Virus genome (UHGV): UHGV-0106768
DNA: 44,108 bases
Origin: a virus
Strand: one strand, 5' to 3'
A program made the position numbers and the translations under genes. Below are positions 1,134 through 34,607 of the stretch, in pieces (positions within the stretch are counted from its first letter, which is position 1; the number at the start of each line of letters is the position of its first letter). The notes under the pieces are model-generated. The model saw only the letters and a program-made list of their open reading frames with translations. It searched no databases and was not told where the DNA came from.

Positions 1134-2033
1134 GTGAAATGGAAGTTCGGAGTATCCCGCAATGCTGCGAAGAAGCGTATCATTGAGCTTGGCTGGCCGG
1201 AGGTGCGCGGTGTGTATGTCTACAACACCACAGGATATGTTGAGGACTACGATGTCGAACTGAGATTCCCGGATGACTATACCTATACACTGTCATTCCG
1301 TCATATCTCTGATGTGTTCGCATCCTGCGAGACCTTTGCAGAGCTTGTAAGCTCCAAGAAGTTCATATATCTGGACGGTCATGTTGTCATCAACAGCGAC
1401 AAGTATATCCGTAAGGAACACGGCATCGCTATAGGCTTGACAGAGTATGCTAGACACCACATGGCAGAGTGCTGTCTGGATTTCAAGCGTATCTACGCAG
1501 AATTCGACTACAGCTATACCTATGGCGAGCTACACAAGGATGACCTGACCGAGATCACGGCCGAAAACCGTTCGTTCAGCGATGAACAGCGAAAGAAGAT
1601 CCGCATGGCAATGTATGAGATCACAGAAGAAAACGATAAACTGACCGTTCCTTCAGATGTCAACGAATTCGGCAAGGCGGTGCGTTTCCATATGGAGAGA
1701 TGCGGTCTCACCTCGGATCTGGTTGCAGACCGCAGCGGCATGGGTGTGAACACTGTCAATAAGATGCGCAGCGGTAAGAAAGTGAAGCTCGAAACGGTAC
1801 TGGCATTCTGTGTAGCTTTGGAGCTTGAGGAGTCGTTCCGCATTGACCTTATGCAGAAAGCAAAGGTCGATTATGATATGAACAATCCCGCCCACAGGTT
1901 GTATGTGACGATTTTTGAGCTTATGGAGAAGCCTAATGTGTTTCAGATCAACGAACTGCTGAAGGCAGAAGGCTTTACTCCGTGGACGAGAGACTGCGAG
2001 GAAAAGAAGCGGTACGCTAAGATAAGTATGTAA
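1134..2033 (+). CDS. Downstream part of the ImmA/IrrE-like gene, ending in an XRE-family helix-turn-helix
   Basis: Same frame as 105..1097, with no RBS or ATG of its own (the track start is GTG). FGVSRNAAKKRIIELGW is the usual C-terminal ImmA/IrrE motif. HTH-like segment GLTSDLVADRSGMGVNTVNKMRSGKK. Terminator follows. Confidence 0.65.
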   Translation: MKWKFGVSRNAAKKRIIELGWPEVRGVYVYNTTGYVEDYDVELRFPDDYTYTLSFRHISDVFASCETFAELVSSKKFIYLDGHVVINSDKYIRKEHGIAIGLTEYARHHMAECCLDFKRIYAEFDYSYTYGELHKDDLTEITAENRSFSDEQRKKIRMAMYEITEENDKLTVPSDVNEFGKAVRFHMERCGLTSDLVADRSGMGVNTVNKMRSGKKVKLETVLAFCVALELEESFRIDLMQKAKVDYDMNNPAHRLYVTIFELMEKPNVFQINELLKAEGFTPWTRDCEEKKRYAKISM

Positions 2034-2046
2034 TAACAGCATTTTC

Positions 2047-2073
2047 AGGAGGCTTTCGAGCCTCCTTTTTTTA
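2047..2073 (+). terminator. Rho-independent terminator
   Basis: AGGAGGCT-TTCG-AGCCTCCT stem-loop followed by a T7 tract, directly after the stop at 2033. Confidence 0.85.
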
Positions 2074-2095
2074 TGCCCTGAAATATTTTCATGAA

Positions 2096-2130
2096 GCCCC
2101 CAGAAAAAATGGGGGGCGATTTTTGTTTTT
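2096..2130 (+). terminator. Second rho-independent terminator
   Basis: GCCCCC / GGGGGC stem with an A-rich loop, followed by GATTTTTGTTTTT. Confidence 0.7.
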
Positions 2131-2256
2131 GAAACAGTTTAGAAATAGAATATTTATAAAATATCCATTTAATTTAGATGATGTGAACAAGTGCAGATTA
2201 TATATCAAAGTTGAGATAAGCATAGTGCATAAAAAACAGCCCCCATTTTTTATGTA

Positions 2257-2285
2257 TGTAAAAGAGAATTCGGATATGTTATGAT
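2257..2285 (+). promoter_or_regulatory. Candidate extended -10 promoter for the long leader
   Basis: TGTAAA - 17 nt - TATGAT, with TG one base upstream of the -10, inside an AT-rich tract. The -35 is weak. Confidence 0.3.
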
Positions 2286-2340
2286 ATAGACACAGTCAAG
2301 GACAGGCACCGCCGCCCATGACTGGAAACAACCTCTATAT

Positions 2341-2460
2341 GCCGGATGCATACGGCAGAGGACGGTCATATGAGAGCAGAACTGAACACCACAGGTATAT
2401 CCCGTGTTCGGAATCTGACATCATATGGCTACTCTGTGTCATGCATCCGGCTATTTTTCT
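2341..2460 (+). promoter_or_regulatory. About 111-nt extended hairpin plus T-tract (attenuator or terminator-like) in an untranslated leader
   Basis: Five nested helices (2341-51/2441-51, 2356-60/2432-36, 2364-72/2422-30, 2377-80/2414-17, 2384-89/2404-09), then CTATTTTTCT. Confidence 0.6.
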
Positions 2461-2520
2461 GCCGCGGCATTCGGAGCATGGCAAATCGATCATTACATTT
2501 GTTAGTCAGGGCGCGCACTG

Positions 2521-2644
2521 GCGGACAGATGCTCATAACGGAAAACAATGCCTGTGGTCTGTATAGACCGGAACAGGTACCGAAAGATTTTCCGTGTGGA
2601 CATTGTCTGCCTGCGTGCCTTTTCGCAGTAAGAGCATCTGCCGC
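2521..2644 (+). ncRNA. Three-way-junction structured leader element (unclassified cis-regulatory RNA candidate)
   Basis: Closing helix 2521-2534/2632-2644 (13 bp, one bulge). Inner helices 2538-45/2588-95, 2551-55/2573-77, 2556-60/2565-69 and 2611-15/2624-28. No credible ORF. Confidence 0.5.
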
Positions 2645-2650
2645 TGAGTG

Positions 2651-2671
2651 CGTTCCTTGCAGAAAGGAACG
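2651..2671 (+). promoter_or_regulatory. RBS-sequestering hairpin
   Basis: CGTTCCTT (2651-58) pairs perfectly with AAGGAACG (2664-71). The 3' arm is the only Shine-Dalgarno-like sequence before ATG 2675. Confidence 0.6.
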
Positions 2672-2674
2672 ATT

Positions 2675-3397
2675 ATGGAAAACGTGAATGTTCAGAATGC
2701 TGCCGCTATTACCGATCAGACCACACTCGGAGAACTGCTTGCAATGCTTGACCTCGCTGATAAGGCAGGCAAGATGCCGACACCGAGAGAACTGTTTGAG
2801 ACCGCCGGTGAGACGATTGCCGACATGAACGGCTGCACGCTCTTCAGCAACGGGTTCGCTGTCTACCAGAATATCACCGGACGTACTGTTGTCTGGCTGC
2901 CTTACTGTAAGAGCTTCACCTATTACTTCGGCAAGCTCCGTGATTCCGAGAAAGACACGCTGACAGAGACCTATGAGCTGCCGGATGGATTTCTGGAAAC
3001 ACAGCCGTGGGTGATCGCAGTAACACTGATCGGCGACCATCGTGTGGAGGCAAACAGCATGAACCGCACCGGCAGCCGCAAGGATACCACAGATTATGAC
3101 AGCGCCGATAACGGCGATAAAGACGGTGATGCAGAGGAGGCTTTGGCAGATCCGTATCGCAGGGCATTCAACTGGTATGACGGACGCATGGGCGAGAATC
3201 CGCAGGATGCCGTGGAGCGCAGAGAGACACGCGAGGAGATGCTTGCAGACATGACGGACAAGCAGCGTGAAGCCTTTATTATGTACTTCAGGGATGGTAT
3301 GACGCAGGAAGAGATTGCTTCATATATAGGGGTAAGCCGTGATTCCATAAATGACAGGCTTGAAGGTGCATTGAAAAAAGCAAAAAAATATTTTTGA
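2675..3397 (+). CDS. Sigma-70 region-4-like HTH regulator (sigma-factor-like protein of the kind seen in Clostridial ICEs and phages)
   Basis: The C-terminus DKQREAFIMYFRDGMTQEEIASYIGVSRDSINDRLEGALKKAKKYF matches the region-4 HTH pattern. The start is taken at ATG 2675 after AAGGAA. The track ORF starts at GTG 2648. Confidence 0.7.
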   Translation: MENVNVQNAAAITDQTTLGELLAMLDLADKAGKMPTPRELFETAGETIADMNGCTLFSNGFAVYQNITGRTVVWLPYCKSFTYYFGKLRDSEKDTLTETYELPDGFLETQPWVIAVTLIGDHRVEANSMNRTGSRKDTTDYDSADNGDKDGDAEEALADPYRRAFNWYDGRMGENPQDAVERRETREEMLADMTDKQREAFIMYFRDGMTQEEIASYIGVSRDSINDRLEGALKKAKKYF

Positions 3398-3441
3398 GGA
3401 TACCCACAAAAAGACCTCTCCCATGACAGTATATGAGAGGG
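3398..3441 (+). repeat. Copy 1 of a conserved 44-nt motif (GGATACCCACAAAA-N4-CCTCTCCCAYGACAGTATATGAGRGG)
   Basis: Nearly identical to 17237-17279. Contains hairpin CCTCTC/GAGAGG with a conserved 14-nt loop. Sits right after a gene end and a T-rich run. Confidence 0.7.
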
Positions 3442-3529
3442 CTTGAAAAGAAACCAAACCGCAAGCGGCTGCAAAGCCCTCGCAGCCGAACCATTATTAC
3501 ATCGGTCGAAAGACCTGAACAGAAAGGAA

Positions 3530-3895
3530 ATGCTTATGCCTATGGAAAACAGAGTCCCGAAAAACCGCTACAACGGCGGTGCCGCGCCCAATGCTGACAA
3601 ACAGGACAAGCCCGATGTGCTGAAGATGATCGAAACGGCAATGGACAAGCGTGCGGCTGGCATAGCACAGACGGTCACGGATATGTTCCGTTTCATGTCG
3701 ATGGCATCCGCCATGCTCCCGAATATGGAGATGGATGTCGGTGTGTTCCGTCTGAAGATCGACGATGACGGCGTGTTCTTTGAAATCCGCTACCCGTCCG
3801 GCTTCAGGCGCAAGCACAAGCCCGATGAGGACGGCGAAAAGCTGCCGGACAACTATGACGATAACGAGGAGGGACTGATCTATGACGGAGACTGA
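3530..3895 (+). CDS. Hypothetical protein
   Basis: Open frame with AAAGGA RBS before ATG 3530/3536. Its end overlaps the next gene. Confidence 0.55.
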   Translation: MLMPMENRVPKNRYNGGAAPNADKQDKPDVLKMIETAMDKRAAGIAQTVTDMFRFMSMASAMLPNMEMDVGVFRLKIDDDGVFFEIRYPSGFRRKHKPDEDGEKLPDNYDDNEEGLIYDGD

Positions 3896-6327: not shown

Positions 6328-9213
6328 GTGGTGATTTTATTGAGCAGACGTGTACTTTCTATCGACCTTGAGACCTACAGCGATGTTGACCTTCCGAACT
6401 GCGGTGTGTACCGCTATGTTGAGGGGGATTTTCATATCCTGCTGTTCGCATATGCATTCGATGATGAAGAAACAAAGTGTATCGACATGGCCTGCGGTGA
6501 ACAGCTTCCCGCAGAGGTTGTGGATGCCATACACAATGAAAATATCATCAAATCTGCGTGGAATGCGCAGTTTGAGCGCATCTGTCTGTCAAAATATCTC
6601 GGCATCAGGCTTTCTCCGGACTCGTGGCAATGCACGATGGTATGGGCGGCATCGCTGTCCCTGCCGCTGAAGCTGGCAACGGCAGCACAGGCTTTGAAAA
6701 CTGCACAGCAGAAAGACAGTGTCGGTGAACGGCTGATCCGCTACTTTTCGATTCCGTGTAAGCCTACCAAATCTAACGGCGGTCGCACACGCAATCTGCC
6801 GGAACACGCTCCGGAGGACTGGGCGCTGTTCAAAAGCTACTGTATTCAGGATGTGGAAACGGAACGGGATATCCGCCGAAGACTTGAAAAGTTTCCGCTG
6901 ATGCCGCAGGAATGGGATTTTTATCACATGGATCAGCGGATCAATGACCGCGGCATCCTGATCGACAGAGAGCTTGTGCAGCAGGCAATTATCTGTAATA
7001 TGGCAATGTCTGAGGAGATGACCAAACGCGCCTATGCACTGACGGGACTTGAAAATCCCAATTCTGTATCTCAGCTGAAGTCATGGCTGGAAGATCGCGG
7101 CATCGAGGTGGATTCCCTCGGCAAAAAGAATGTCGCTTCTCTGATCACAGACCTTGACAAGCACAGTGCGGACGGTGAAGCTCTGGATATGATGAAGCTG
7201 CGGTTGCAGATGGCAAAGTCCTCTGTGAAAAAGTATCAGGCGGCAGAGAGATACATCTGTCAGGACGGCAGGGCGCACGGACTGTTTCAGTTTTCCGGAG
7301 CTCAGCGAACACAGCGCTGGTGTCTTACCGGCGATCATGAAATACTGACAGATAAAGGCTGGCTCAGGCTTGATAATTGGCAGGGCGGTAAGATTGCTTG
7401 TTGGAATCCTAATCAGGAAATGGTCTCGTTCCAGAAAGCGAACGTATTGTGCTTTGAATATGACGGTCCTATCTACCGCTATGAGGACAAACGGATCGAT
7501 CAGATCAGCACGCCGGATCACAAAATGCGTGTAAAGAAACGGTATAACGGCGAGTGGACGGATGACACTGTTGGCAATATGGAAAAGTATCGTCCTTCTA
7601 TTCCGTTTACCGGACGCAGACAAACGATGCCCGGCTTGGAGCACGCAGAACTGAGGGTACTGGTGATGACGCAGGCTGACGGCAGCTATAAAGAAGATGG
7701 AATGCTCTGCTTCCATTTCAAGAAGAAAAGGAAAATAGAACGGTGCAAACATCTGCTCAGACAGGCGGGCATTTATTTCACAGTGAATGAATGCAGGACA
7801 GATGGAACAACGCAGATCAAGATTCCTTCCCGTGAGCAGCCGATGTATCTAAGAATGTTTCATAACAAGACATTTGGAATGTGGCTTCTCGATGAAAGCC
7901 CGGATGTTTTCTTTGATGAGCTTCGGTATTGGGACGGATCGCAAAGCGCCAAAAACAGTATCCAATATACCACAACGAACAAAGTGAATGCCGATATTGT
8001 TCAGGCTTTTGCTCATACAAGTGGTCGCTGTGCAAAAATGAAACCGGTCATCCGGGATAAAGAACACCCGAATTGGAGCGATGCATACTATCTCGATATA
8101 TGGCTCACTCCGAAAAACTGTCATGAAATCAGAGTGAAGCCGACTATCTCGCAATTCAGCGGCAAAATATACTGTGCTGAAACCCCAACCGGATACTTCC
8201 TTGTAAGACGTAATGGTAAAGTGTGGGTAACAGGAAACAGCGGGCGCGGCATTCAATTACAGAACCTGCCGCAGAACCACATCTCTACCCTCGATGAAGC
8301 AAGAGAACTTGTCAAAATGGGCTGCTTTGACATGATCGAAGCACTGTACGGCAATACGCCGGATATCCTGTCACAGCTTATCCGCACGATGCTCATTCCG
8401 AAGGACGGCTGTGAATTTATCGTGGCAGACTTCTCCGCCATTGAAGCGAGAGTACTTGCGTGGCTTGCCGGAGAACAGTGGCGGCTCGATGCCTTCAAGC
8501 GTGGCGAGGATATTTACTGTGCATCCGCATCGCAAATGTTCGGTGTTCCGGTCGTGAAGCACGGCATCAACGGTGAACTGCGGCAGAAAGGCAAGGTCGC
8601 AGAATTGGCCTGCGGTTACGGCGGCGGTGCCGGTGCGCTGATCTCAATGGGCGCACTGGATATGGGACTGAAAGAGGACGAACTTCCCGACATCATTTCA
8701 AGCTGGCGCGACGCAAACCCGGAGATCGTGAAATTCTGGTATGCTGTGGAAAAAGCCGCGATTGAAACAGTCAAGGATCACAATGACAGATCGGTCGGCC
8801 GGATCGGATTTCAGTTTTCAGCAAATACACTGTGGATCGTTCTTCCGTCCGGACGCAGGCTTGCCTACATCAAACCGAGATTACAGCCGAACCGCTTCGG
8901 GCGTATGGCACTGACATTTGAGGGGCTTGGTGCAAACAACAAGTGGGTGCGCGGCGAAACCTATTCCGGCAAGCTGACAGAGAACATCACACAGGCAACT
9001 GCCCGTGATCTCCTTGCAGAAGCAATGCGCCGTATAGAACTTGCAGGGCTTGGAATCGTCGGGCATGTGCATGATGAGGTCATTCTCGAAGTGCCGAAAG
9101 GACAATACACGGTCGATGATGTATGCAGCATCATGAATCAGAATCCGAAATGGGCGGAGGACTTACCGTTGTCAAGTGCAGGATATACGGGTGCATGGTA
9201 CTACAAAGATTAA
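6328..9213 (+). CDS. Family A DNA polymerase with 3'-5' exonuclease domain, interrupted by an intein
   Basis: Exo I SIDLETYSD, RT(Q)RW...SGRGIQLQNLPQ, motif A IVADFSAIEARVLAWL, motif C HVHDEV. The true start may be TTG 6340. Confidence 0.9.
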   Translation: MVILLSRRVLSIDLETYSDVDLPNCGVYRYVEGDFHILLFAYAFDDEETKCIDMACGEQLPAEVVDAIHNENIIKSAWNAQFERICLSKYLGIRLSPDSWQCTMVWAASLSLPLKLATAAQALKTAQQKDSVGERLIRYFSIPCKPTKSNGGRTRNLPEHAPEDWALFKSYCIQDVETERDIRRRLEKFPLMPQEWDFYHMDQRINDRGILIDRELVQQAIICNMAMSEEMTKRAYALTGLENPNSVSQLKSWLEDRGIEVDSLGKKNVASLITDLDKHSADGEALDMMKLRLQMAKSSVKKYQAAERYICQDGRAHGLFQFSGAQRTQRWCLTGDHEILTDKGWLRLDNWQGGKIACWNPNQEMVSFQKANVLCFEYDGPIYRYEDKRIDQISTPDHKMRVKKRYNGEWTDDTVGNMEKYRPSIPFTGRRQTMPGLEHAELRVLVMTQADGSYKEDGMLCFHFKKKRKIERCKHLLRQAGIYFTVNECRTDGTTQIKIPSREQPMYLRMFHNKTFGMWLLDESPDVFFDELRYWDGSQSAKNSIQYTTTNKVNADIVQAFAHTSGRCAKMKPVIRDKEHPNWSDAYYLDIWLTPKNCHEIRVKPTISQFSGKIYCAETPTGYFLVRRNGKVWVTGNSGRGIQLQNLPQNHISTLDEARELVKMGCFDMIEALYGNTPDILSQLIRTMLIPKDGCEFIVADFSAIEARVLAWLAGEQWRLDAFKRGEDIYCASASQMFGVPVVKHGINGELRQKGKVAELACGYGGGAGALISMGALDMGLKEDELPDIISSWRDANPEIVKFWYAVEKAAIETVKDHNDRSVGRIGFQFSANTLWIVLPSGRRLAYIKPRLQPNRFGRMALTFEGLGANNKWVRGETYSGKLTENITQATARDLLAEAMRRIELAGLGIVGHVHDEVILEVPKGQYTVDDVCSIMNQNPKWAEDLPLSSAGYTGAWYYKD
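7321..8238 (+). mobile_element. Class-1-type intein with LAGLIDADG homing-endonuclease domain inside the DNA polymerase
   Basis: Starts CLTGDHEILT and ends VWVTGN followed by Ser. Block B is TPDH. LAGLIDADG-like motifs LRVLVMTQADGS and FFDELRYWDGS. Removing it restores GAQRTQRW-SGRGIQLQNLP. Confidence 0.85.
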
Positions 9214-17236: not shown

Positions 17237-17279
17237 GGATACCCACAAAATGCCCTCTCCCACGACAGTATATGAGGGG
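17237..17279 (+). repeat. Copy 2 of the conserved 44-nt motif
   Basis: GGATACCCACAAAATGCCCTCTCCCACGACAGTATATGAGGGG. The stem is kept through an A-to-G change giving a G-U pair. Again follows a gene end and a T-run. Confidence 0.7.
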
Positions 17280-17360
17280 CGTTGCTCAGACCGAACAACA
17301 CATCATTTGCGGGGCTGACCGTCCCTCACCAAATATCAACACAGGAAGGAGGCAGAGACA

Positions 17361-26848: not shown

Positions 26849-26925
26849 GCTGTTCTGTATGGGCTTTCCGTGATATGCACAATCTCAGGGGCGTAAAAGC
26901 CCCGTACACTCTACGATTTACAGTC

Positions 26926-26954
26926 TTGATATATCCGCCGTAATGGCGTAATAT
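26926..26954 (+). promoter_or_regulatory. Cassette promoter 1: TTGATA-17-TAATAT
   Basis: Exact 17-nt spacer. Conserved leader and GGAGG RBS follow, then ATG 27011. Confidence 0.7.
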
Positions 26955-27010
26955 GTGACTACCGCAAGGGAAAACCGAGCGGAATCAAAAACGAAACGGA
27001 GGATTCACAT

Positions 27011-28132
27011 ATGAAAACTTATGCAATGATCATTGGAAACCGCAAGGAACTCACAAAGAGAATCGAGGCACTCACCGGAGAGCGCAGCGTATACACCTTC
27101 ATGCCGAGATGCGCCTATGAGATCGGGGCATTCGCAGTCGAGAAGGACGGCACACTTACGGCACAGGACGATGCCGACCAGAGCGTGATCGACACCCTGA
27201 GAGCCGAGGGTATGATCGGTGGTGAGATCATCGCAGAGAGCATCAAGGCAGTCGAGCCGGAGCAGACCGATGAGACCGCAGAGCCGGAACAGCCTGCACC
27301 GCCCGTAAGCACCGATGAATGGGACGATGATGAGGATGACGACGATGAGAACAGCGTCGAGGGCGAGAATGCGGAAGCGGAAGAGCCGGAGGAGTCCGAA
27401 GAAAATGCCGATAAGTCGGAGCCTTCCGCAGAGCCAGAAGCCGCACCTCCTGCGACCGAGGATGCCTGGGATGATGAACCGGAGGATGAACCCGGCGACG
27501 AGCCGGAAGAAACCACCGAGCTTCCTGAACCGCTGACCGCAGAGATCAGCTTCCCGCTGAGCCATCACACGGTGCAGAGCCTTACAAACCTCATCTGCAT
27601 GATCCACTCCCGCGGCGCACTTCTCAGCAAGGCAACCGGCGGACAGTTTTACGCTGACAAGAGCCTCGCCGATGCGATCCTCGATGACAAGACCTTCCGC
27701 AGCATTCACGAGCTGATCGCCTACATCAGAGAATGGGAGGAGACGAATCCTGAACTGAAGGGCATCCGCTTCGCCGATGACAAGCTAATCTTTGACGGCT
27801 TCGGTGCAGCGCAGGATGCCGAAACGGTGCAGACCTTCACCAAGCTCGCCACAGCCATGAACAGGATGGCGATCACGCAGAAACGTGTGCAGGCAAAGGA
27901 TGTCGATGACAGCAACGAAAAGTACGCACTCCGCATCTGGCTGATCCGCCTTGGGCTGAACGGCGCAGACTGCAAGGTTGACCGCAAGCGCCTCATGGCT
28001 CCGCTTTCCGGACACACCGCATTCCGCAACGATGCGGAGCGTGTGCGCTGGGAGGCAAAGCAAAAGGCAAAGCGTGATGCTGCCAGAACCGAACTGACCG
28101 AGGAGGATGAAAACGATGCAGTTTCCGAATGA
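27011..28132 (+). CDS. Hypothetical protein with an acidic low-complexity region of about 90 aa and an amidoligase-like C-terminal tail
   Basis: 373-aa ORF. Acidic tract EPEQTDETAEPEQ...DDDEDDDDENSVEGENAEAEEPEESEE. The C-terminus EKYALRIWLIRLGLNG...LSGHTAFR parallels KKFAMRTWLMRMGFIG...LTGDNSFR of the neighbouring amidoligase. Confidence 0.6.
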   Translation: MKTYAMIIGNRKELTKRIEALTGERSVYTFMPRCAYEIGAFAVEKDGTLTAQDDADQSVIDTLRAEGMIGGEIIAESIKAVEPEQTDETAEPEQPAPPVSTDEWDDDEDDDDENSVEGENAEAEEPEESEENADKSEPSAEPEAAPPATEDAWDDEPEDEPGDEPEETTELPEPLTAEISFPLSHHTVQSLTNLICMIHSRGALLSKATGGQFYADKSLADAILDDKTFRSIHELIAYIREWEETNPELKGIRFADDKLIFDGFGAAQDAETVQTFTKLATAMNRMAITQKRVQAKDVDDSNEKYALRIWLIRLGLNGADCKVDRKRLMAPLSGHTAFRNDAERVRWEAKQKAKRDAARTELTEEDENDAVSE

Positions 28133-28364
28133 AAGACAGCTCAGAGCCTTGCGGGAGCGTTATCCCGCAGGAACCCGCATCCGACTGAAGCATATGGATG
28201 ACCCTTATGCACCCGTACCGCCCGGCACGGTCGGAGAGGTTCAGATGGTCGATGACGGCGGCAACATACACATGGTCTGGGAGAATGGCAGAACGCTCTC
28301 CCTTATAGACGGTGTCGATGATTTCCAAGTCATTTCTGACCGCAATGGGGGCTCCGGAAAATAA
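28116..28364 (+). CDS. DUF4314 domain protein
   Basis: GAGGAGGA RBS. RYPAGTRIRLKHMDDPYAPVPPGTVGEVQMVDDGGNIHMVWENGRTLSL is the DUF4314 pattern. Confidence 0.7.
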   Translation: MQFPNERQLRALRERYPAGTRIRLKHMDDPYAPVPPGTVGEVQMVDDGGNIHMVWENGRTLSLIDGVDDFQVISDRNGGSGK

Positions 28365-28477
28365 GAGATCCTATTCCATTGTATCCGAGTATACCATAGA
28401 ATTTCAAGTATATCAAGTGTACACATACACCAGATATGAGCAATGTATTTTCCTCGATATTCTGTGGTTTTAGCGGC

Positions 28478-28506
28478 TTGCTATATCCTCCGAAAGACGG
28501 TAACAT
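28478..28506 (+). promoter_or_regulatory. Cassette promoter 2: TTGCTA-17-TAACAT
   Basis: Exact 17-nt spacer. Leader hairpin GGGC-AAAC-GCCC at 28521-28532. GGAGG RBS. Confidence 0.7.
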
Positions 28507-28561
28507 GTGACACAACGGAAGGGCAAACGCCCACCGAAAAACCGAATCGGAGGATACCAAA

Positions 28562-29506
28562 ATGACTGAGAAAACCGCACAGCAGATCAACAGAATGAAG
28601 GAGCAGACCATCGGGGTTGAGATCGAGATGAACAACATCACCCGCAAGGCTGCCGCAAAGCTCGCCGCCAACTTCTTCGGCACCAGCCGCACCGAGTACA
28701 CCGCACACCGCAACGGCTACGAAACCTACAGCGCATGGGATGCACAGGGCAGAGAGTGGAAATTCCAGAAGGACGTCAGCATCGCAGGCCCCGACAGCGA
28801 AAAGTGCGAACTGGTCACACCGATCCTGCACTACGCAGACATCGAAACCCTGCAGGAGCTTGTGAGAAGGCTCAGAAAGGCAGGAGCGCGCAGTGATTAC
28901 ACGCGGGGATGTGGAGTCCACTGCCACATTGGAGCCCAGGGACACACACCGCAGACCTTGAGAAACCTCGCAAACCTGATGGCAAGCCACGAAACCCTGA
29001 TCGCCGAGGCAATCAGAGTAGACCAGAGCAGAATGCGCCGCTACTGCAGAACAGTTGACCCGAGATTCCTTGAACAGCTCAACCGCAAAAAGCCCACCAC
29101 GATGGCACAGCTTGCGGACATCTGGTACGGCGCACAGGGCTGCGAATACGGCAGAACCCACCACTACAACGACAGCCGCTATCACATGCTCAACCTCCAC
29201 GCTACCTTCACCAAAGGCACGGTCGAGTTCAGACTTTTCCAGTTCGCACCGCCTTCCAACGGCAAGCAGAACGGGCTCCACGCAGGCAAGCTCAAGAGCT
29301 ACATTCAGCTCTGCCTCGCAATGAGCCAGATGGCAAAGGACCTGCGGAGCGCCAGCCCCAAGGAACAGCAGAAGGAAAACAAAAAGTTCGCCATGCGGAC
29401 TTGGCTGATGAGAATGGGATTCATCGGGGACGAATTCGCAACCGCAAGGGAAACCCTCACCGAGAACCTTACAGGCGACAACAGCTTCCGCTTCGGCAGA
29501 CCTTAA
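28562..29506 (+). CDS. Amidoligase (glutamine-synthetase-like COOH-NH2 ligase family of phages and ICEs)
   Basis: N-terminus TIGVEIEMNNITRKAAAKLAANFFG and the core CGVHCHIG...GTVEFRLFQ match my recollection of the 'putative amidoligase enzyme' family. Confidence 0.7.
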   Translation: MTEKTAQQINRMKEQTIGVEIEMNNITRKAAAKLAANFFGTSRTEYTAHRNGYETYSAWDAQGREWKFQKDVSIAGPDSEKCELVTPILHYADIETLQELVRRLRKAGARSDYTRGCGVHCHIGAQGHTPQTLRNLANLMASHETLIAEAIRVDQSRMRRYCRTVDPRFLEQLNRKKPTTMAQLADIWYGAQGCEYGRTHHYNDSRYHMLNLHATFTKGTVEFRLFQFAPPSNGKQNGLHAGKLKSYIQLCLAMSQMAKDLRSASPKEQQKENKKFAMRTWLMRMGFIGDEFATARETLTENLTGDNSFRFGRP

Positions 29507-29542
29507 AGCCTGCCCTGCGGGGCGGAAGAACAAGCGGAACGT

Positions 29543-29670
29543 CACGGCGGCGCACACAGCACCCTCATCGCCACGTGTGGGGCGGAAGGGTATCCTCCGA
29601 ACACATACCCAACTCAGTCAACCGAGCCACACAGCGCAAATGTAGGCAAGGCATAAAATGCACAACATAC
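29543..29670. repeat. GC-rich intergenic S-module, copy 1 (divergent, hairpin arms apparently in inverted order)
   Basis: CACGGCGGCGCACAC...CCACGTGTGGGGCGG...GGCAAGGCATAAAATGCACAACA shares blocks with the copies at 32.2, 33.1 and 34.4 kb. Confidence 0.5.
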
Positions 29671-29709
29671 GGCACAGAATCGCCCTCGATGATCTGTTCA
29701 TTTACTCGC

Positions 29710-29738
29710 TTGATAATGCCGCCGAAAAGAGTTAACAT
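29710..29738 (+). promoter_or_regulatory. Cassette promoter 3: TTGATA-17-TAACAT
   Basis: Exact 17-nt spacer. Leader variant CTACCGCAAGG. AGGAG RBS. Confidence 0.65.
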
Positions 29739-29777
29739 GGCACTACCGCAAGGAAAAAACGCAAAGGAGAACATAGC

Positions 29778-30239
29778 ATGAACAAGAAAAAATACTACAT
29801 AGCCTACGGCAGCAACCTCAACATCCGCCAGATGCGGTTCCGCTGCCCAGGCGCAAAGCCCATCGGCATTTCCGCGATTCCTGACTACGAACTGCTCTTC
29901 AAGAGCAGCAAGACGGGAGCGTACCTCACCATCGAGCCGAAGGACGGCGGGCTTGTTCCGGTCGCCGTGTGGGAAGTGACAGCCGACGATGAGAAGCACC
30001 TCGACATCTACGAGGGCTACCCGAACTTCTACTACAAAAAAGAAGTACGCCTGCCGATCAAGCTGGCAAACGGCAAGACCAAAAAGGTCACGGCATTTGT
30101 CTACATCATGCACGAGGAGCGTGAGATTGCGATCCCGTCAATGACCTACATCCGCACCTGCGAGGAAGGCTACCGCAACTTCGGATTTGATGTGAAGTAC
30201 CTTGACAGGGCATACATGAGAAGCACAAAGGAGGACTGA
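29778..30239 (+). CDS. Gamma-glutamyl cyclotransferase / AIG2-like protein
   Basis: YYIAYGSNLNIRQMRFRCPGA N-terminus, and ...YEGYPNFY, typical of the GGCT/AIG2 fold. Confidence 0.7.
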   Translation: MNKKKYYIAYGSNLNIRQMRFRCPGAKPIGISAIPDYELLFKSSKTGAYLTIEPKDGGLVPVAVWEVTADDEKHLDIYEGYPNFYYKKEVRLPIKLANGKTKKVTAFVYIMHEEREIAIPSMTYIRTCEEGYRNFGFDVKYLDRAYMRSTKED

Positions 30240-30241
30240 AA

Positions 30242-30445
30242 ATGAAAGAACAGGTTTTTGAGAAGCGTACATGTCCGCAATGCGGACGCACCTACACCGA
30301 GCGTCCTGCCCTATCCCGCTACGACAACGACACGATCATCTGCCCGGACTGCGGCACGAGGGAGGCACTCGAAAGCATGGGCATCAGCATCGAGGAACAG
30401 GACAAGATCCTCGGCATCATCCACGAGAAGTACAACGGCGAATAA
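30242..30445 (+). CDS. Small zinc-ribbon protein
   Basis: CPQCG...CPDCG pairs. Starts 2 nt after the upstream stop. Confidence 0.55.
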   Translation: MKEQVFEKRTCPQCGRTYTERPALSRYDNDTIICPDCGTREALESMGISIEEQDKILGIIHEKYNGE

Positions 30446-30516
30446 GGCGACATAAAGGGGCGTTACAGCCCCTTTCCGCATTCTCAGGGATAACTTTATC
30501 CCCCACTTTCCGGGCG

Positions 30517-30565
30517 TGACACGGCGCGTTCTGGCGCAAACTGTGGGCTTGTGTATATGTACCTG
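30517..30565. repeat. S-module, partial copy
   Basis: TGACACGGCGCGTTCTGGCGCAAACTGTGGGCTTGTGTATATGTACC matches the 3' half of the other copies. Confidence 0.5.
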
Positions 30566-30617
30566 TTCAGCTTGCTGAAAACGGCGATTCTTCTACGATT
30601 TATTTTGCATATAGGCG

Positions 30618-30646
30618 TGGACATATCGCCGGGATCATGGTAATAT
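30618..30646 (+). promoter_or_regulatory. Cassette promoter 4: TGGACA-17-TAATAT
   Basis: Exact 17-nt spacer. AT-rich upstream block TTTATTTTGCA. Leader hairpin GGGC-AGACA-GCCC. Confidence 0.65.
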
Positions 30647-30704
30647 GCTACACAACGGCAGGGGCAGACAGCCCACCGGAATTCATAACATGGAGGATAC
30701 GAAC

Positions 30705-31175
30705 ATGAACGAAAGCTACTTTGAGGAGATGACCTTCCAGTGCGCCGCCTATGAACGCGCCAAAAAGGAGCGCGCCGAGCGCAAGGCTCAGATTGCCGAA
30801 GCCCACGGCTACGACAGCCCGGAGATGGACGCTTGGTACGCTGAGGAGAAGGCGGCGGGTCCTTACCCCTACAGCGGCGGTGAGATGAAAGCCTACTGGG
30901 TGTACAAGATGCGCCGCGAGAACGACGGTGACGAGTTCGAGATGAGCGATTACTGCTGGGACAAGGAATTCCACGATTTCATCGAAACGCTCCGCAAGCT
31001 AGGCATCACCGAGTTCACGATCACCAATCAGAGCACGGCGCTGATGGAGAACATCTACGGATTTATTGCAGAAGGCTGCACGATGGTCGGAACGCACACC
31101 ATCACCAAGAAGAGCCTGCGCTGGAGCGAGGAAGAATACGAAACGGCACAGGGCATCCTTTTCAAGGTGAACTGA
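30705..31175 (+). CDS. Hypothetical protein
   Basis: GGAGGATACGAAC-ATG. 156-aa ORF. Confidence 0.6.
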   Translation: MNESYFEEMTFQCAAYERAKKERAERKAQIAEAHGYDSPEMDAWYAEEKAAGPYPYSGGEMKAYWVYKMRRENDGDEFEMSDYCWDKEFHDFIETLRKLGITEFTITNQSTALMENIYGFIAEGCTMVGTHTITKKSLRWSEEEYETAQGILFKVN

Positions 31176-31183
31176 TATCGACA

Positions 31184-31207
31184 GGAGCAGGGCTTCGGCT
31201 CTGCTCC
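31184..31207 (+). terminator. GC-rich TTCG-loop hairpin after a cassette gene
   Basis: GGAGCAGGGC-TTCG-GCTCTGCTCC. Near-identical copy at 33632-33655. A C/T-rich tail follows, but no clean U-tract. Confidence 0.5.
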
Positions 31208-31293
31208 CCCTCCCCCTTTTCCTCATGTGTAACTCCTACAATACGAAAGGCTGAGATCGGCGATTCTTCTACGTTTTATTTTGCACATAGGCG

Positions 31294-31322
31294 TGGACTT
31301 ATCAGCAGGATCATGGTAATAT
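31294..31322 (+). promoter_or_regulatory. Cassette promoter 5: TGGACT-17-TAATAT
   Basis: Exact 17-nt spacer. Upstream block shared with promoter 4. Leader hairpin GGGC-AGAAC-GCCT. Confidence 0.65.
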
Positions 31323-31377
31323 GTGACACAACGGAAGGGCAGAACGCCTACCGAAAAACGAAACGGAGGATAACACC

Positions 31378-31698
31378 ATGAACCCCTACACACTGAGAAA
31401 GAGCCTGAACCTGATTGATGCCAACACGGCGATCACCCGCGAGGACTTCGAGAGCCTCTTCTGCAAGACTGCAGAGCGTGTCACCTTTACCTTCAACGGT
31501 TGGGACGGCAAGAGCTATGATGGCGAGAGCCGCAGCGGTTACGTTTACCGCACCATCATCGAGGGCTACGAGAATGTGAGATTCGTTAAGGTCGGCAAGG
31601 GACTGCATTACATCGATGAGGACAGCAGCATTACCGAGAAGGCTACGGGCATCGCCCACAAGGAAGCAGAGTGGCTGGTCGATGTGAAGAGAGCATAA
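31378..31698 (+). CDS. Hypothetical protein
   Basis: GGAGGATAACACC-ATG. 106-aa ORF. Confidence 0.6.
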   Translation: MNPYTLRKSLNLIDANTAITREDFESLFCKTAERVTFTFNGWDGKSYDGESRSGYVYRTIIEGYENVRFVKVGKGLHYIDEDSSITEKATGIAHKEAEWLVDVKRA

Positions 31699-31763
31699 GC
31701 AAAACAGCGGAGCCCTTCCTGCGGGGAGGGCTTACCGCAGAAAAAACATGGAGGTTTACGAAC

Positions 31764-32147
31764 ATGAGTACGAATTCAAGAGTCGGAATCCTGCATCAGG
31801 ACGGCGCCACGGAGACAATCTACTGCCATTGGGACGGCTACCCCGAACACCAGATGCCCATCCTCACCGAGCATTATAACACCGCCGAGAAGGTCAAGGC
31901 ACTGCTTGCCCTTGGAGACATCAGCATCCTCGGCGAGCGCCTTGCTCCCGATGCGGATGAGCCGCACAGCTTTGAAAAGCCTGCCGATGGTGTGACGGTT
32001 GCTTACCACCGCGACCGCAAAGAGCCGATGCAGCCTGCGGTCACCCACAAGAGCGTTGTTTCCCTGATGAGCGATGACTGGGGCATTCCGTATTACTACC
32101 TTTTCGATGAGGAAAAAGGAGCATGGCTTCCGCCGACCGAGGACTGA
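31764..32147 (+). CDS. Hypothetical protein
   Basis: GGAGG RBS before ATG 31764. 127-aa ORF. Confidence 0.6.
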   Translation: MSTNSRVGILHQDGATETIYCHWDGYPEHQMPILTEHYNTAEKVKALLALGDISILGERLAPDADEPHSFEKPADGVTVAYHRDRKEPMQPAVTHKSVVSLMSDDWGIPYYYLFDEEKGAWLPPTED

Positions 32148-32170
32148 TAGGTTCAGCCCTGCGGTGCTGA

Positions 32171-32290
32171 CTTGCCCCACGTTGTCCTTTGTGCGGTTTT
32201 CCTGCGATAAGCTTGCCCCTGCGGAAAGCCGCCTCACACGGCGCGTTTGTGTGCCTCCTGTGGGCTTGGTGCTATGTATACAACAAATGG
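32171..32290. repeat. S-module, copy 3
   Basis: CTTGCCCCACGTTG...GCTTGCCCCTGCGGAAAGCCGCCTCACACGGCGCGTTTGTGTGCCTCCTGTGGGCTTGG...TATACAACAA. Confidence 0.6.
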
Positions 32291-32327
32291 CGCAGATACG
32301 CCGATTTTGTTCTGAACATTTAGCCGC

Positions 32328-32356
32328 TTGCTATTCCGGAAAGATCATGGTAATAT
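32328..32356 (+). promoter_or_regulatory. Cassette promoter 6: TTGCTA-17-TAATAT
   Basis: Exact 17-nt spacer. Leader identical in its core to that of promoter 2 (ACACAACGGAAGGGCAAACGCCCACCGAA). Confidence 0.7.
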
Positions 32357-32412
32357 GCTACACAACGGAAGGGCAAACGCCCACCGAATACAAAACACGG
32401 AGGTAAACCACC

Positions 32413-32778
32413 ATGACAAAGAAGGAAATGAAAGCCGCAGTTGACAAGCTGAAGATGCTGCAGAACGGCAAAGCCGCCCTTGAGGGAATGACCGAAGCGG
32501 ACTGCCTTGAGCTTTTCGGGATCAGCAGAGCGCAGGCACTTGCAAACACAAACGCCGCCCTTGCCAAAACCGAGCAGGAGATTTTCAGAGCCGAGCATCC
32601 GCTGACAGGCATCGACAAACAGCTCTTCGAGATCGCAGCAAAGCACCTGATCACGGTGCAGGAGCGCGGAGACCTTGAAGCCCGCCACTGCGACAGCGAG
32701 GACTTCATCGAGGTTTCGGTCTGGGGGCTGGAAGCCGCCCTCAAGGATGCCTACGAGGCAGGACGCAAGAGCAAGTAA
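32413..32778 (+). CDS. Hypothetical protein
   Basis: GGAGGTAAACCACC-ATG. 121-aa ORF. Confidence 0.6.
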   Translation: MTKKEMKAAVDKLKMLQNGKAALEGMTEADCLELFGISRAQALANTNAALAKTEQEIFRAEHPLTGIDKQLFEIAAKHLITVQERGDLEARHCDSEDFIEVSVWGLEAALKDAYEAGRKSK

Positions 32779-32843
32779 CCAAACGGAACAGCGCAGCCCT
32801 TCCGCAGGGAGGAGGGGCTGCCAATCCCGAAGGAGGAAAGAAC

Positions 32844-33023
32844 ATGGATACATACGCACAGCTTGAAATGCTGACCGCAGTCATCGCAAACCTGTCGGCC
32901 ACGGGAACATGGACGGAGCGAGAAGTGATGGAAACGCTGCTGGATGTCTTTGAACCGAAGGAGCTTGAACAGCTCGGCTACGGCGACTGCGTGAACGCAT
33001 ACTTGGAAGAGTACGGCGGATAG
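32844..33023 (+). CDS. 59-aa hypothetical protein (below the ORF-track cut-off)
   Basis: GAAGGAGGA RBS. My own translation is MDTYAQLEMLTAVIANLSATGTWTEREVMETLLDVFEPKELEQLGYGDCVNAYLEEYGG. Confidence 0.5.
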   Translation: MDTYAQLEMLTAVIANLSATGTWTEREVMETLLDVFEPKELEQLGYGDCVNAYLEEYGG

Positions 33024-33034
33024 CGACGACACAC

Positions 33035-33145
33035 GCACCACGTTGCCTCGTGTGGGGCGGTGCCGGGGAGATGCGTACAGCTTGCCCCTGCGAAAAGCCG
33101 CCTTACACGGCGCGTTCTGGCGCGTCCTATACGATGTACAATTCC
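33035..33145. repeat. S-module, copy 4
   Basis: CACCACGTTGCCTCGTGTGGGGCGG...GCTTGCCCCTGCGAAAAGCCGCCTTACACGGCGCGTTCTGGCGCG. An 11-bp stem joins 33050-60 and 33098-108. Confidence 0.6.
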
Positions 33146-33193
33146 GCCCGACTTCCCGCCTCATGTTTGTCACATTTATTTTGCAGACAGACG

Positions 33194-33222
33194 TGGACTT
33201 TTCTGCGAAAAGACGGTAATAT
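33194..33222 (+). promoter_or_regulatory. Cassette promoter 7: TGGACT-17-TAATAT
   Basis: Exact 17-nt spacer. Leader variant GTGACTACCGCAAGAGAAGCGG, as for promoter 1. Confidence 0.65.
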
Positions 33223-33269
33223 GTGACTACCGCAAGAGAAGCGGAATCAATCAAAAGGAGCGAATCTAC

Positions 33270-33623
33270 ATGAAAATTCTGGTATGCGAACCCGGCAAGC
33301 ACCCCTACGTCAAGGACATCGAGTCGGGGCTGGAGAACCTTCAGCACGAGGTGGACGGACTGATTCAGGCCCTCTACCCATTTTCCGAAGAGGCGGCTGT
33401 TGTGTGCAACGAAGAAGGGCTGTTCCGCGATGACCTCGAATGGAACAGAACGGTCGATCCCTATGGTCCGATCAAGGGAACATTCTTCATTTGTGGGCTC
33501 GGCTTTGAAGATTTTACAGGACTGACCGATGAACAGATCGAAAAGTACACTAAGCTCTTCTGGCCTCCTGAGCTTTTCATCCCGACACCGAACGGCATGG
33601 TGGTGCTTCACATTGTGGAATGA
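33270..33623 (+). CDS. DUF3846 domain protein
   Basis: MKILVCEPGKHPYVKDIESGLENLQHEVDGLIQALYPF...VVCNEEG...GTFFICG pattern. Confidence 0.7.
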   Translation: MKILVCEPGKHPYVKDIESGLENLQHEVDGLIQALYPFSEEAAVVCNEEGLFRDDLEWNRTVDPYGPIKGTFFICGLGFEDFTGLTDEQIEKYTKLFWPPELFIPTPNGMVVLHIVE

Positions 33624-33631
33624 CCGCAACA

Positions 33632-33655
33632 GGGGCAGGGCTTCGGCTCTGCTCC
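33632..33655 (+). terminator. GC-rich TTCG-loop hairpin after a cassette gene (copy of 31184-31207)
   Basis: GGGGCAGGGC-TTCG-GCTCTGCTCC, with two G-U pairs. Confidence 0.5.
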
Positions 33656-33726
33656 GCACCATTCCCCGGTCATAATGTACACAACTGAACGCCGAAAAAT
33701 GCAGAAATGATCGTGATTACTCACGC

Positions 33727-33755
33727 TTGATAATGTAGGCAAGAAGAGTTATACT
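33727..33755 (+). promoter_or_regulatory. Cassette promoter 8: TTGATA-17-TATACT
   Basis: Exact 17-nt spacer. Leader hairpin GGGC-GGAAA-GCCC. Confidence 0.7.
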
Positions 33756-33812
33756 GTGTACAACGGAAGGGCGGAAAGCCCAGCCGAAAACGAAAATGCG
33801 GAGGTACACACC

Positions 33813-33992
33813 ATGAAAACGAAGCAGGAACTGATCGAGAAGGCAAAGAAAGAGTGGGGCGAGACTTGGAACGAGGGCATGATCGAGTACGATGCCGAGT
33901 ACAACGAGTACATCGTCTGGGTAGGCAAGCCGGACATCTACAAAGCCTTCTTCGATGCCGACACCCTCAGATGCATTGGCACGAAGTGCTGA
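33813..33992 (+). CDS. 59-aa hypothetical protein
   Basis: GGAGGTACACACC-ATG. The track ORF 33756..33992 contains it. Confidence 0.55.
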   Translation: MKTKQELIEKAKKEWGETWNEGMIEYDAEYNEYIVWVGKPDIYKAFFDADTLRCIGTKC

Positions 33993-34000
33993 GAACAACC

Positions 34001-34018
34001 GCCGCCCTTCGGGGCGGC
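34001..34018 (+). terminator. GC-rich TTCG-loop hairpin
   Basis: GCCGCCC-TTCG-GGGCGGC. No U-tract. Confidence 0.4.
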
Positions 34019-34047
34019 ACAACACCAATACTAAGGAGGACATTTAC

Positions 34048-34321
34048 ATGAGCGAGAACACAGAAAAGCGCGATGCAGCCGAAGAACTAAGAACTTACCG
34101 ATGCACAGGCAGACCGCAACGATGACATCTACGAGGCAGCTTTTGAATTCTGCAAGGTGCTGACCGAGAACCCCGACCTCGAATGGGACATGGCGTTCCT
34201 CGGTGAGATCGCCGACCTTGCCGCTGGCATCATGACCGAGCAGGGACACAAGGTGCGGTTCCCCAGTGTGGTCACCGAGCAGGACGGCACGCAGTACATT
34301 GAAGAATACTACGGCGGCTGA
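34048..34321 (+). pseudogene. Small cassette gene disrupted by a frameshift near codon 14
   Basis: A strong AAGGAGGA RBS precedes ATG 34048. Frame 1 (MSENTEKRDAAEELRTYR...) stops at 34123-25. The +1 frame is open from 34091 to TGA 34319-21 and reads LTDAQADRNDDIYEAAFEFCKVLTENPDLEWDMAFLGEIADLAAGIMTEQGHKVRFP... Confidence 0.55.
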
Positions 34322-34361
34322 TCGGCAAAACGGAGCAGTCCTTCTGCGGAGGGGCTGTTCC

Positions 34362-34485: not shown

Positions 34486-34522
34486 CAAAAAATCACCTTG
34501 CACATTCTGGTAGTTTAGCCGC

Positions 34523-34551: not shown

Positions 34552-34607
34552 GTGTACAACGGAACGGGAAACCGAGCCGAAAACTACGAAAGAACGAGGT
34601 AAACACT

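Follow-up and report, generated by a model that had tools for sequence, protein, structure and literature searches.

In the trp leader of Bacillus subtilis, which is regulated by TRAP, a terminator is combined with a hairpin that sequesters the Shine-Dalgarno (SD) sequence, and on read-through, the SD and an upstream segment of the leader are rivals for the anti-SD strand. Translational riboswitch platforms, such as those of thiM thiamine pyrophosphate (TPP) and SAM-II, use mutually exclusive helices to hide or expose the SD. In the pairs of ribonucleic antiterminator (RAT) and terminator that are served by antiterminators of the BglG/SacY/LicT type, a stabilized 5' hairpin that overlaps the 5' half of the terminator blocks the terminator. 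The hok mRNA is folded kinetically through metastable co-transcriptional structures, and the dimerization initiation site (DIS) of HIV-1 is a kissing loop with a purine-flanked, self-complementary stretch of six bases, for which both GCGCGC and GUGCAC occur among HIV-1 subtypes. The leader of the B. subtilis infC-rpmI-rplT operon, about 200 nt long, contains a structural switch that is set by the operon product L20, and one of its forms is a terminator (PMC1865079). Here, a leader RNA is described from UHGV virus genome UHGV-0106768, a stretch of 44,108 nucleotides that is referred to below as the window. The leader occupies positions 2496-2674 of the plus strand, directly before a gene for a sigma-like protein, and the evidence tips toward its being a conserved multi-state, cis-acting switch for this gene.

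The proposed switch centers on one 5' strand that is complementary to three mutually exclusive partners (Table 1). During transcription, a local hairpin (P0) would form first, presenting a 5' box in its loop. In state B, the proposed OFF state, the strand would pair with 2599-2620 to give a terminator-like rod, leaving the anti-SD strand (2651-2658) free to bind the SD (2664-2671). In state A, the proposed ON state, the strand would pair with 2632-2659 and the closing helix would run across the anti-SD strand, releasing the SD for 30S initiation at ATG 2675. The partition between A and B would be set co-transcriptionally, the B partner being made first; were P0 to persist or to be held by a factor, the choice would be delayed until the A partner exists. 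The lifetime of P0, its stabilizers and the speed of the polymerase would in this way determine the share of translatable mRNA, and the B rod with its U-run, like the upstream hairpin T1, may cause partial (leaky) intrinsic termination. The trigger would be a protein or a kinetic signal rather than a small ligand. The class of mechanism, attenuator-like alternative pairing that governs SD access and perhaps termination, is known; the one-strand/three-partner architecture and the tie to a phage sigma-like gene are new, making this a new cis-regulatory leader RNA family. Beyond the presence and conservation of the helices, these statements on mechanism are predictions of the model.

Similar to the trp leader, the fold of this leader would decide whether the SD is free, and a terminator-like element and an SD hairpin lie within one leader. 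In contrast to the trp leader, there is no (G/U)AG repeat array and no TRAP, a phage regulator gene stands in the place of the biosynthetic operon, and the competing 5' strand has two near-duplicate 3' partners as well as a 5' hairpin. The infC leader is a candidate analogy for an autoregulatory trigger; however, L20 recognizes an rRNA mimic, none being evident here, and acts at transcription elongation only, whereas the clearest predicted output of the present leader is SD accessibility. A multi-branch fold directly 5' of the SD and exclusive helices at the SD are shared with translational riboswitches, but here there is no conserved aptamer core, the arms are variable, no Rfam match is found and the gene is non-metabolic. 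As in RAT/terminator pairs, P0 (2496-2531) overlaps the 5' half of a terminator-like hairpin, although its sequence is unrelated to RAT and P0 also competes with a third structure that would control translation. The proposed folding resembles that of hok in that an early local hairpin and a first long-range helix would give way, over a high barrier, to distal pairing that alters translatability; unlike hok, this leader has no antisense partner and no 3' processing signal, and it has an architecture of one CAGAUG and three CAUYUG motifs. The loop variants of P0 are the same two hexamers as in the HIV-1 DIS, while the P0 loop has 8 nt, not 9, and may have no role other than intramolecular pairing in states A and B.

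Relatives of the leader were collected in two ways. A protein-based search gave 29 loci, and the leader could be aligned in about 21 of the 27 that were assessable. A DNA pattern taken from the most conserved block gave 18 viral and 110 metagenome stretches, from which chance matches were filtered, and 80 distinct copies were aligned (alignment A1); family counts refer to these copies unless stated otherwise. An independent second pattern, placed on the SD hairpin, recovered further variants. About 85 distinct copies are known from viral, genome and metagenome contigs. In every copy in which the downstream open reading frame (ORF) is complete, it encodes a homologue of the window protein (39-100% identity). 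The upstream context varies: some copies follow a promoter and T1, others the stop codon of an unrelated gene and others a sigma-like paralogue, and phages with tandem paralogues carry a separate copy of the leader for each paralogue (L015; L038-type contexts). Close relatives are found in viral contigs and in genomes of Ruminococcus flavefaciens and Oscillospiraceae, and the sequenced isolate R. flavefaciens 007c carries a variant on one of its contigs (L020). Among GenBank phages, a DNA search with 2030-3400 gave no match, and a protein search of phages gave only two weak matches, restricted to the helix-turn-helix (HTH), in unannotated fecal phage contigs. The leader precedes the first gene after the early promoter of the phage and probably gates the regulator that launches the lytic program of widespread, uncultured Ruminococcus/Oscillospiraceae phages of the rumen and gut.

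The most conserved block of the element is the 39-nt segment CAUUUGUUAGUCAGGGCGCGCACUGGCGGACAGAUGCUC (2496-2534), which is identical in 55 of the 80 copies, although there is variation in its partners, in the P2 arm and in the downstream protein. It contains one CAGAUG, and CAUYUG occurs in each of the three mutually exclusive partners. P0, the first of the competing structures, has a predicted energy of -15.8 kcal/mol (z = -3.4) and an 8-nt loop, G-GCGCGC-A (2510-2517). Its pairs are kept in 96.2% of alignment cells, and the fold is retained in the divergent loci L015 and L002. Two double changes from G:C to A:U support this hairpin, one at 2505:2522 in L058 and an independent one at 2509:2518 in the clade of L002, L008, L018, L019 and L020; the C to U change of the latter is at position 2518, which has no part in any other helix. 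Formation of P0 precludes both state A and state B. In silico, P0 has the features of an antiterminator, as it is conserved, is made earlier than the rod and uses 2505-2531, the 5' half of the rod.

The helices themselves had been described in part in an earlier note, which read the segment 2521-2671 as a riboswitch-like three-way junction followed by a hairpin at the ribosome-binding site (RBS). The junction comprised a closing helix of 2521-2534 with 2632-2644 (13 bp, A2525 bulged), inner helices 2538-2545/2588-2595, 2551-2555/2573-2577 and 2556-2560/2565-2569 and a separate arm 2611-2615/2624-2628, and the RBS hairpin paired CGTTCCTT (2651-2658) with AAGGAACG (2664-2671) before ATG 2675. 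Each of these helices is found at its coordinates, and folding of 2515-2690 with RNAfold recovers all of the listed helices together with a small extra hairpin at 2599-2610. The minimum free energy (MFE) of 2515-2690 is -76.9 kcal/mol, compared with -46.8 +/- 3.9 kcal/mol for dinucleotide shuffles (z = -7.67), none of the 200 shuffled sequences being as stable, and z = -6.5 was obtained for 2285-2690. The minus strand folds less well (z = -6.3). Many of the conserved pairs are G.U on the plus strand; an RNA made from the minus strand was rejected on this ground, and the plus-strand RNA, rather than a DNA dyad, is the relevant molecule. The helices are maintained across about 85 relatives with some compensatory changes, and the proposal of a conserved plus-strand leader with an SD-occluding hairpin right before a sigma-70-region-4 gene is borne out.

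The alternative offered in the note, a riboswitch-like or a novel cis-regulatory RNA, is upheld in its latter half, as this is a novel cis-regulatory leader without a known family, while the junction-plus-SD-hairpin arrangement and the aptamer picture were not sustained. A scan of the whole window against Rfam 15 at gathering thresholds gave 0 matches, and hence no described RNA family. When 1900-3600 was searched at E values up to 10, there was no plus-strand Rfam match within 2496-2674, the only overlapping match being minus-strand PhotoRC-I at 16 bits (gathering score 45); five divergent relatives searched at E up to 1 gave only a 31-bit match of a miRNA hairpin to one P2 arm (gathering score 100). 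A full-text literature search returned nothing on this leader element. A compact, ligand-binding junction next to a separate SD hairpin is not supported, in view of the 73 distinct sequences of P2, the insertions in the junction and the finding that the invariant bases are strands of competing helices. Similarly, the junction and the SD hairpin, which had been taken to coexist, belong to opposite states: when the closing helix forms in the full leader, the box 2507-2519 captures the anti-SD strand. The two are seen together in the fold of 2515-2690 because an input that starts at 2515 leaves out the 5' box, and the segment considered in the note omits the conserved 5' part 2496-2520, which alters which helices can coexist.

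In state A, the closing helix (2520-2534 with 2632-2645) is followed by a one-base bulge and then by 2507-2519 paired with 2647-2659, which includes the anti-SD strand. The closing helix is the best-kept helix of the leader (97.9% paired), and its extension onto the anti-SD strand is paired in 88.3%. State A with the anti-SD strand captured is also the RNAalifold consensus and the MFE structure of the full leader of the window (-77.2 kcal/mol), in which the SD hairpin is predicted not to coexist. In state B, 2509-2517 pairs with 2612-2620 and 2520-2531 with 2601-2611, giving a rod that is about 20 bp long and is capped by the P2 arm; the rod (2505-2625) has an energy of -57.3 kcal/mol (z = -6.3), with 92.9% of cells paired. 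Alignment columns that join the 5' box to each partner show how both pairings are kept. Columns 24:174 (5' box with 3' box) are G-C in 55 copies and A-U in 12, and columns 24:244 (5' box with the anti-SD flank) are G-C in 36, G.U in 30, A-U in 13 and otherwise in 1. A change of the 5' box from GCGCGC to GUGCAC is accompanied by the matching U in both 3' partners, and a change of the X segment from GGCGG to GGCAG by CUGCC in X'2 of L025, L092 and L103. As a control, the 3' partners were slid by 1-3 columns, and pairing fell to 37-53%. The two 3' partners resemble duplicates of one another, GA-CAUUGUCUGCC-UGCGUGCC compared with GAGCAUCUGCCGC-UGAG-UGCGUUCC.

The P2 arm, which is present in both states, occurs as 73 distinct sequences of 57-90 nt, all of which fold into extended hairpins (mean z = -3.7, 88% below -2, mononucleotide shuffles). 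P2 was judged by per-sequence folding; column-based covariation counts are unsuitable for it because MAFFT shifts the register between arm types. Its basal helix remains paired despite differing sequence, as in ACGGAAA/UUUCCGU, AAGGAAUACAG/CUGUAUCCUU and AAACGAUUA/UGAUCGUUU. Insertions of 0 to about 45 nt follow P4 and lie between 2620 and 2632. Several further structures were considered and set aside. A pseudoknot of the closing helix with the pairing of 5' box and 3' box was rejected from linker lengths, since only 2 nt (2518-2519) would be available for crossing a 14-bp helix and only 10 nt (2621-2631) for a distance of about 23 bp. The MFE structure of state A also pairs the 5' flank UUUGUU with the SD, but this pairing is lost in the CAUUUGAAAG clade and was taken as incidental. 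A leader peptide ORF at 2346-2687 is not conserved, because indels in P2 break its frame.

The link to translation rests on the SD hairpin. Taken alone, this hairpin has an energy of -11.3 kcal/mol (z = -4.9); 92% of its cells are paired, and it occurs in the compensatory variants GCGUCC/GGACGC, GUGUCC/GGACAC and AGUCCU/AGGACU. Among the 80 state-B structures, 79 have the GGA of the SD paired. The predicted ensemble cost of opening the six-base SD window is 1.2 kcal/mol in state A and 6.2 kcal/mol in state B, and A is the cheaper state in 79 of 80 copies. Enforcing the closing helix alone already lowers the cost to 1.15-1.27 kcal/mol, compared with 6.2-6.7 kcal/mol in state B, and therefore, in the full leader, the closing helix replaces the SD hairpin rather than accompanying it. 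A conserved segment competes for the anti-SD strand, and its pairing (2507-2519 with 2647-2659) is predicted to free the SD.

The energies of the two states, calculated with enforced-pair constraints, are close to balance across the family. The difference dG(A) - dG(B) over the 80 sequences has a mean of +0.2, a median of +0.75 and a standard deviation of 4.7 kcal/mol; A is lower than B in 39 of the 80 and the two lie within 3 kcal/mol in 42. Unconstrained MFE structures correspond to B in 45 copies and to A in 35, while in the window itself state A is at -77.2 and state B at -72.7 kcal/mol. For the growing transcript, the MFE structure consists of P0 and P2 up to about 2606, then of state B (still present at 2647), and of state A from about 2656. 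The B rod, which is complete at the U-run 2620-2623, ends in the stem GGGCGCGCA/UGCGUGCC(C), behind which the window has UUUU, and at least 4 U within the 6 nt after the rod are present in 59 of the 80 copies. An arm of 57-90 nt at the tip of such a rod is unusual for a terminator.

A number of points weigh against a multi-state switch. Double-sided pair changes are not significant when compared with shuffles (34/500 and 158/500), because the strands are so conserved, and the covariation term of RNAalifold is just -1.0 kcal/mol. The pair counts come from lineages that are related to one another, the search pattern itself prescribed 18 of the 39 positions of the 5' strand, an ascertainment bias that is only partly relieved by the protein-based loci and the second pattern, and all energies and accessibilities are nearest-neighbor predictions. 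The similarity of the 3' partners could in part reflect descent from a tandem duplication rather than selection for two states. P4 is the weakest helix, with its outer stem in 75% of cells, its inner CCC/GGG in 85% and many gaps. Moreover, the direct path that links B and A has a barrier of about 20 kcal/mol for the window (mean 25), a value that is an upper bound and ignores pseudoknotted branch migration. Free interconversion of A and B is doubtful on this modeling, and one of the states could be a dead end; given the high barrier, the partition is therefore probably decided during synthesis. Finally, the U-run of the window is short (UUUU) and 21 of the 80 copies have fewer than 4 U after the rod, and therefore termination is not a universal function of the family, whereas SD gating can be.

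Several other explanations compete with, or would refine, the proposed switch. Operation by a protein, in which the sigma-like protein (perhaps by means of its N-terminal part) or another phage or host RNA-binding protein would bind P0 or the 5' strand and decide between termination/OFF and read-through/ON, much as in ribosomal-protein leaders or RAT-type antiterminators, would specify the trigger of the switch rather than a different structure. The element accompanies one gene family whatever lies upstream of it, each tandem paralogue has its own copy, and 55 of 80 copies share one and the same 39-nt 5' strand though the proteins fall to about 40% identity. Furthermore, P0 overlaps the 5' half of the terminator-like rod in the manner of a RAT, and the two-state infC leader of about 200 nt, operated by L20, offers a precedent (PMC1865079). 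Still, the sigma-like protein has no detected RNA-binding domain, its recognized domain being a DNA-binding HTH, and the need to match three partners could also explain the invariance of the 5' strand; operation by such a protein is at present a tentative suggestion. That the leader has a single static structure, with rod B acting as an intrinsic terminator, RNase III or stability element that ends the upstream unit, the SD hairpin as a constitutive damper and 2632-2659 as a relic of duplication, would suit the likeness of the rod and U-run to T1, which shows no obvious second partner, the early formation of B behind a high computed barrier to A, and the duplicate-like appearance of X'1 plus 3' box and X'2 plus anti-SD flank. 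Under this explanation, however, it is difficult to see why the second partner stays complementary: where the 5' box has changed from G to A, the anti-SD flank has U (13 A-U and 1 non-pair among 80), where X has gone from GGCGG to GGCAG, X'2 has CUGCC (L025, L092, L103), the closing helix is the best kept of all (97.9%), and the energy balance of A and B is centered on zero over 80 sequences. A static leader is accordingly judged unlikely.

For a metabolite riboswitch, the junction closed by 2521-2534/2632-2644 would be the aptamer and its ligand would control the SD hairpin. The stable multi-branch fold beside an SD-occluding helix and the mutually exclusive helices that share 2507-2534 do resemble an expression platform, and the lack of an Rfam match would call for a new class. 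Yet the near-invariant nucleotides are all strands of competing helices and no conserved unpaired core was found among them, P2 has 73 distinct sequences of 57-90 nt, the segment 2621-2631 takes insertions of 0 to about 45 nt, and the 5' box is predicted to make the closing helix and the SD hairpin anti-correlated with no ligand needed. The absence of an unpaired core, together with control of a phage regulator rather than a metabolic or transport gene, therefore makes a metabolite riboswitch very unlikely. An element acting in the DNA is the most improbable of these explanations. Here, the 16-bp near-palindromes TCAGGGCGCGCACTGG (2506-2521) and GCCGGATGCATACGGC (2341-2356) would be operators or promoter parts for a dimeric protein; both are dyad-symmetric, and the double changes GCGCGC to GTGCAC and CAGGG..CACTGG to CAAGG..CATTGG preserve the symmetry. 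Nevertheless, the two palindromes are unrelated in sequence to each other, many conserved pairs are G.U and would be mismatches in a DNA dyad, P2 retains its fold and not its sequence, and the complementarity to 2599-2620 and 2632-2659, as well as the link to the SD, would go unexplained. A more speculative extension, to which we give little credence, is that leaders kiss: self-complementary loops of P0 (and T1) would dimerize nascent RNAs, hold P0, block the OFF rod and favor the SD-open state. The P0 loop has the purine-flanked, self-complementary form of the DIS, as GCGCGC or as G-GUGCAC-A, in all copies except L023 (1 of 80). Against this, the loop bases also have intramolecular partners in A and B, and a single event may account for the GUGCAC variant. 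If kissing did occur, synthesis of the regulator would track the number of leader transcripts, and hence of phage genomes or active promoters, giving an RNA-level dosage switch for lytic commitment that requires neither a protein nor a ligand sensor. The multi-state switch that we favor would, for its part, be a new RNA switch family with three rival partners and two nearly iso-energetic end states, and a natural case of kinetically programmed folding that couples read-through to translation.

Table 1. Features of the leader and its surroundings in the window (positions of the 44,108-nt stretch).
Feature	Position	Strand	Composition and remarks
Intergenic region	2034-2674		In order: two terminator-like hairpins closing the upstream unit, A+T-rich stretch, promoter, small hairpin, T1, leader element
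Extended -10 promoter, TGtTATGAT	2277-2285	+	Read from sequence; predicted transcription start near 2292
5'-proximal small hairpin, CAGUCA...UGACUG	2293-2324	+	Fold of 2286-2340: -14.6 kcal/mol, z = -3.2
T1	2341-2458	+	Long hairpin 2341-2451, then UAUUUUU 2452-2458; -59.2 kcal/mol, z = -7.5
P0 hairpin	2496-2531	+	CAUUUGUU (2496-2503) with GACAGAUG (2524-2531); GUCAG (2505-2509) with CUGGC (2518-2522)
Shared 5' strand	2507-2534	+	5' box GGGCGCGCA (2509-2517) and X GGCGGACAGAUGCUC (2520-2534)
P2 variable arm	2538-2595	+	Both states; the three inner helices of the earlier note
State-B partner	2599-2623	+	X'1 (2599-2611), 3' box UGCGUGCCU (2612-2620), U-run 2620-2623
P4	2611-2628	+	Local hairpin of the 3' box (separate arm of the earlier note); possible in state A only
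State-A partner	2632-2659	+	X'2 GAGCAUCUGCCGCU (2632-2645), then linker and anti-SD strand (2647-2659)
Anti-SD/SD hairpin	2651-2671	+	CGUUCCUU (2651-2658) with AAGGAACG (2664-2671); forms in state B
Sigma-like gene	2675-3397	+	240-aa protein: C-terminal sigma-70 region 4, N-terminal ~150 aa without recognized fold

The hairpin T1 lies about 50 nt past the predicted transcription start and looks like a promoter-proximal intrinsic terminator, its G+C-rich stem having an uninterrupted base of 11 bp that is followed by the tract UAUUUUU. The interior of the hairpin diverges, in contrast to the base of the stem (GCCGGAUGCA/UGCAUCCGGC) and the T-run, which are conserved. By eye, without a formal alignment, L011 has a T1-like element that resembles the main element of L015 in both strands, with an identical GATGTTCAGACG shared; T1 has the same rod architecture as the main element and appears to be related to it in sequence. 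In L011 and L016, an element of the T1 type alone precedes the sigma-like gene. The 5' strand of T1 can form the hairpin GCCG[G-AUGCAU-A]CGGC; in the L029/L032 clade, CGAC breaks this stem. Between T1 and the leader element lies a spacer (2460-2479) that is confined to the subclade of the window and holds a perfect 10-nt palindrome, TGCCGCGGCA (2460-2469); at its end, GAGCAT (2474-2479) is complementary to AUGCUC (2529-2534), a possible fourth partner of the shared strand.

Upstream of T1, the sequence TGnTAYRAT is found about 7 nt before CAGTCAAGG in L001, L004, L008, L017, L021, L023 and L029, loci in which the upstream regions are otherwise different. The promoter at 2277-2285 is not listed by a consensus promoter scan, because its -35 is poor. 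The stem CAGUC/GACUG of the small hairpin that follows the predicted start is retained in L001, L004 and L008. Just 5' of this early promoter, an inverted repeat, AAAAAATGGGGGGCG / CAGCCCCCATTTTTT (2104-2118 and 2237-2251), flanks 120 nt of A+T-rich sequence; L001, L004, L008 and L017 retain its right arm and show a left arm that is shortened (TGGGGGCGATTT). Further 5', the adjacent ORFs 105-1097 and 1134-2033 match phrog_4031 at profile positions 120-311 and 336-622 (of 626), respectively. ORF 105-1097 has a weak IrrE/M78 peptidase match and ORF 1134-2033 an XRE-type HTH, and the two may be a split or fused immunity-type gene pair on the same strand, 5' of the early promoter.

The regulated gene encodes a protein whose sole recognized domain is a Pfam Sigma70_r4_2 match (E = 6.8e-10, residues 188-235). 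The TIGR02937 model scores 47 bits, just above its cut-off of 42.9, and homologues carry the NCBI name 'sigma-70 family RNA polymerase sigma factor'. The protein has at least 489 homologues. An AlphaFold model built with 36 homologues has a mean predicted local distance difference test (pLDDT) score of 50 and is confident for the C-terminal HTH only. Domain searches detected no RNA-binding domain in this protein, only the DNA-binding HTH, the model being too poor for the N-terminal part. One base past the stop codon of the sigma-like gene begins an element at 3398-3445 with the core CTCCCAYGACAGTATATGAGAGG, and a second copy at 17237-17284 is 88% identical. This element lies just 3' of the sigma-like gene in nearly all related loci and is also found in loci that lack the leader motif (L011, L012 (x2), L013, L016, L024 (x2) and L025). 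Its RNA fold is not significant (z about -1.5) and the arm 5' of the core is not conserved; the element may be a cognate promoter or another target site of the sigma-like protein.

The long ORFs of the window are all on the plus strand, and the window is phage-like, with ORFs for a DUF2800 protein, an Enc34-type single-stranded DNA-binding protein and a PolA-like polymerase. The PolA-like ORF (6328-9213, 961 aa) contains an apparent intein-like insertion that starts with CLTGDHEILT and ends with VWVTGN/S, as judged by eye from the translation. In addition, 26900-34600 holds several repeated modules (repeat families D1-D8), in each of which a sigma-70-like promoter (TTGATA, 17 nt, TAATAT) is followed by a conserved leader (ACAACGGAAGGGCAAACGCCCACCGAAAAAC...GGAGGA) before short genes.

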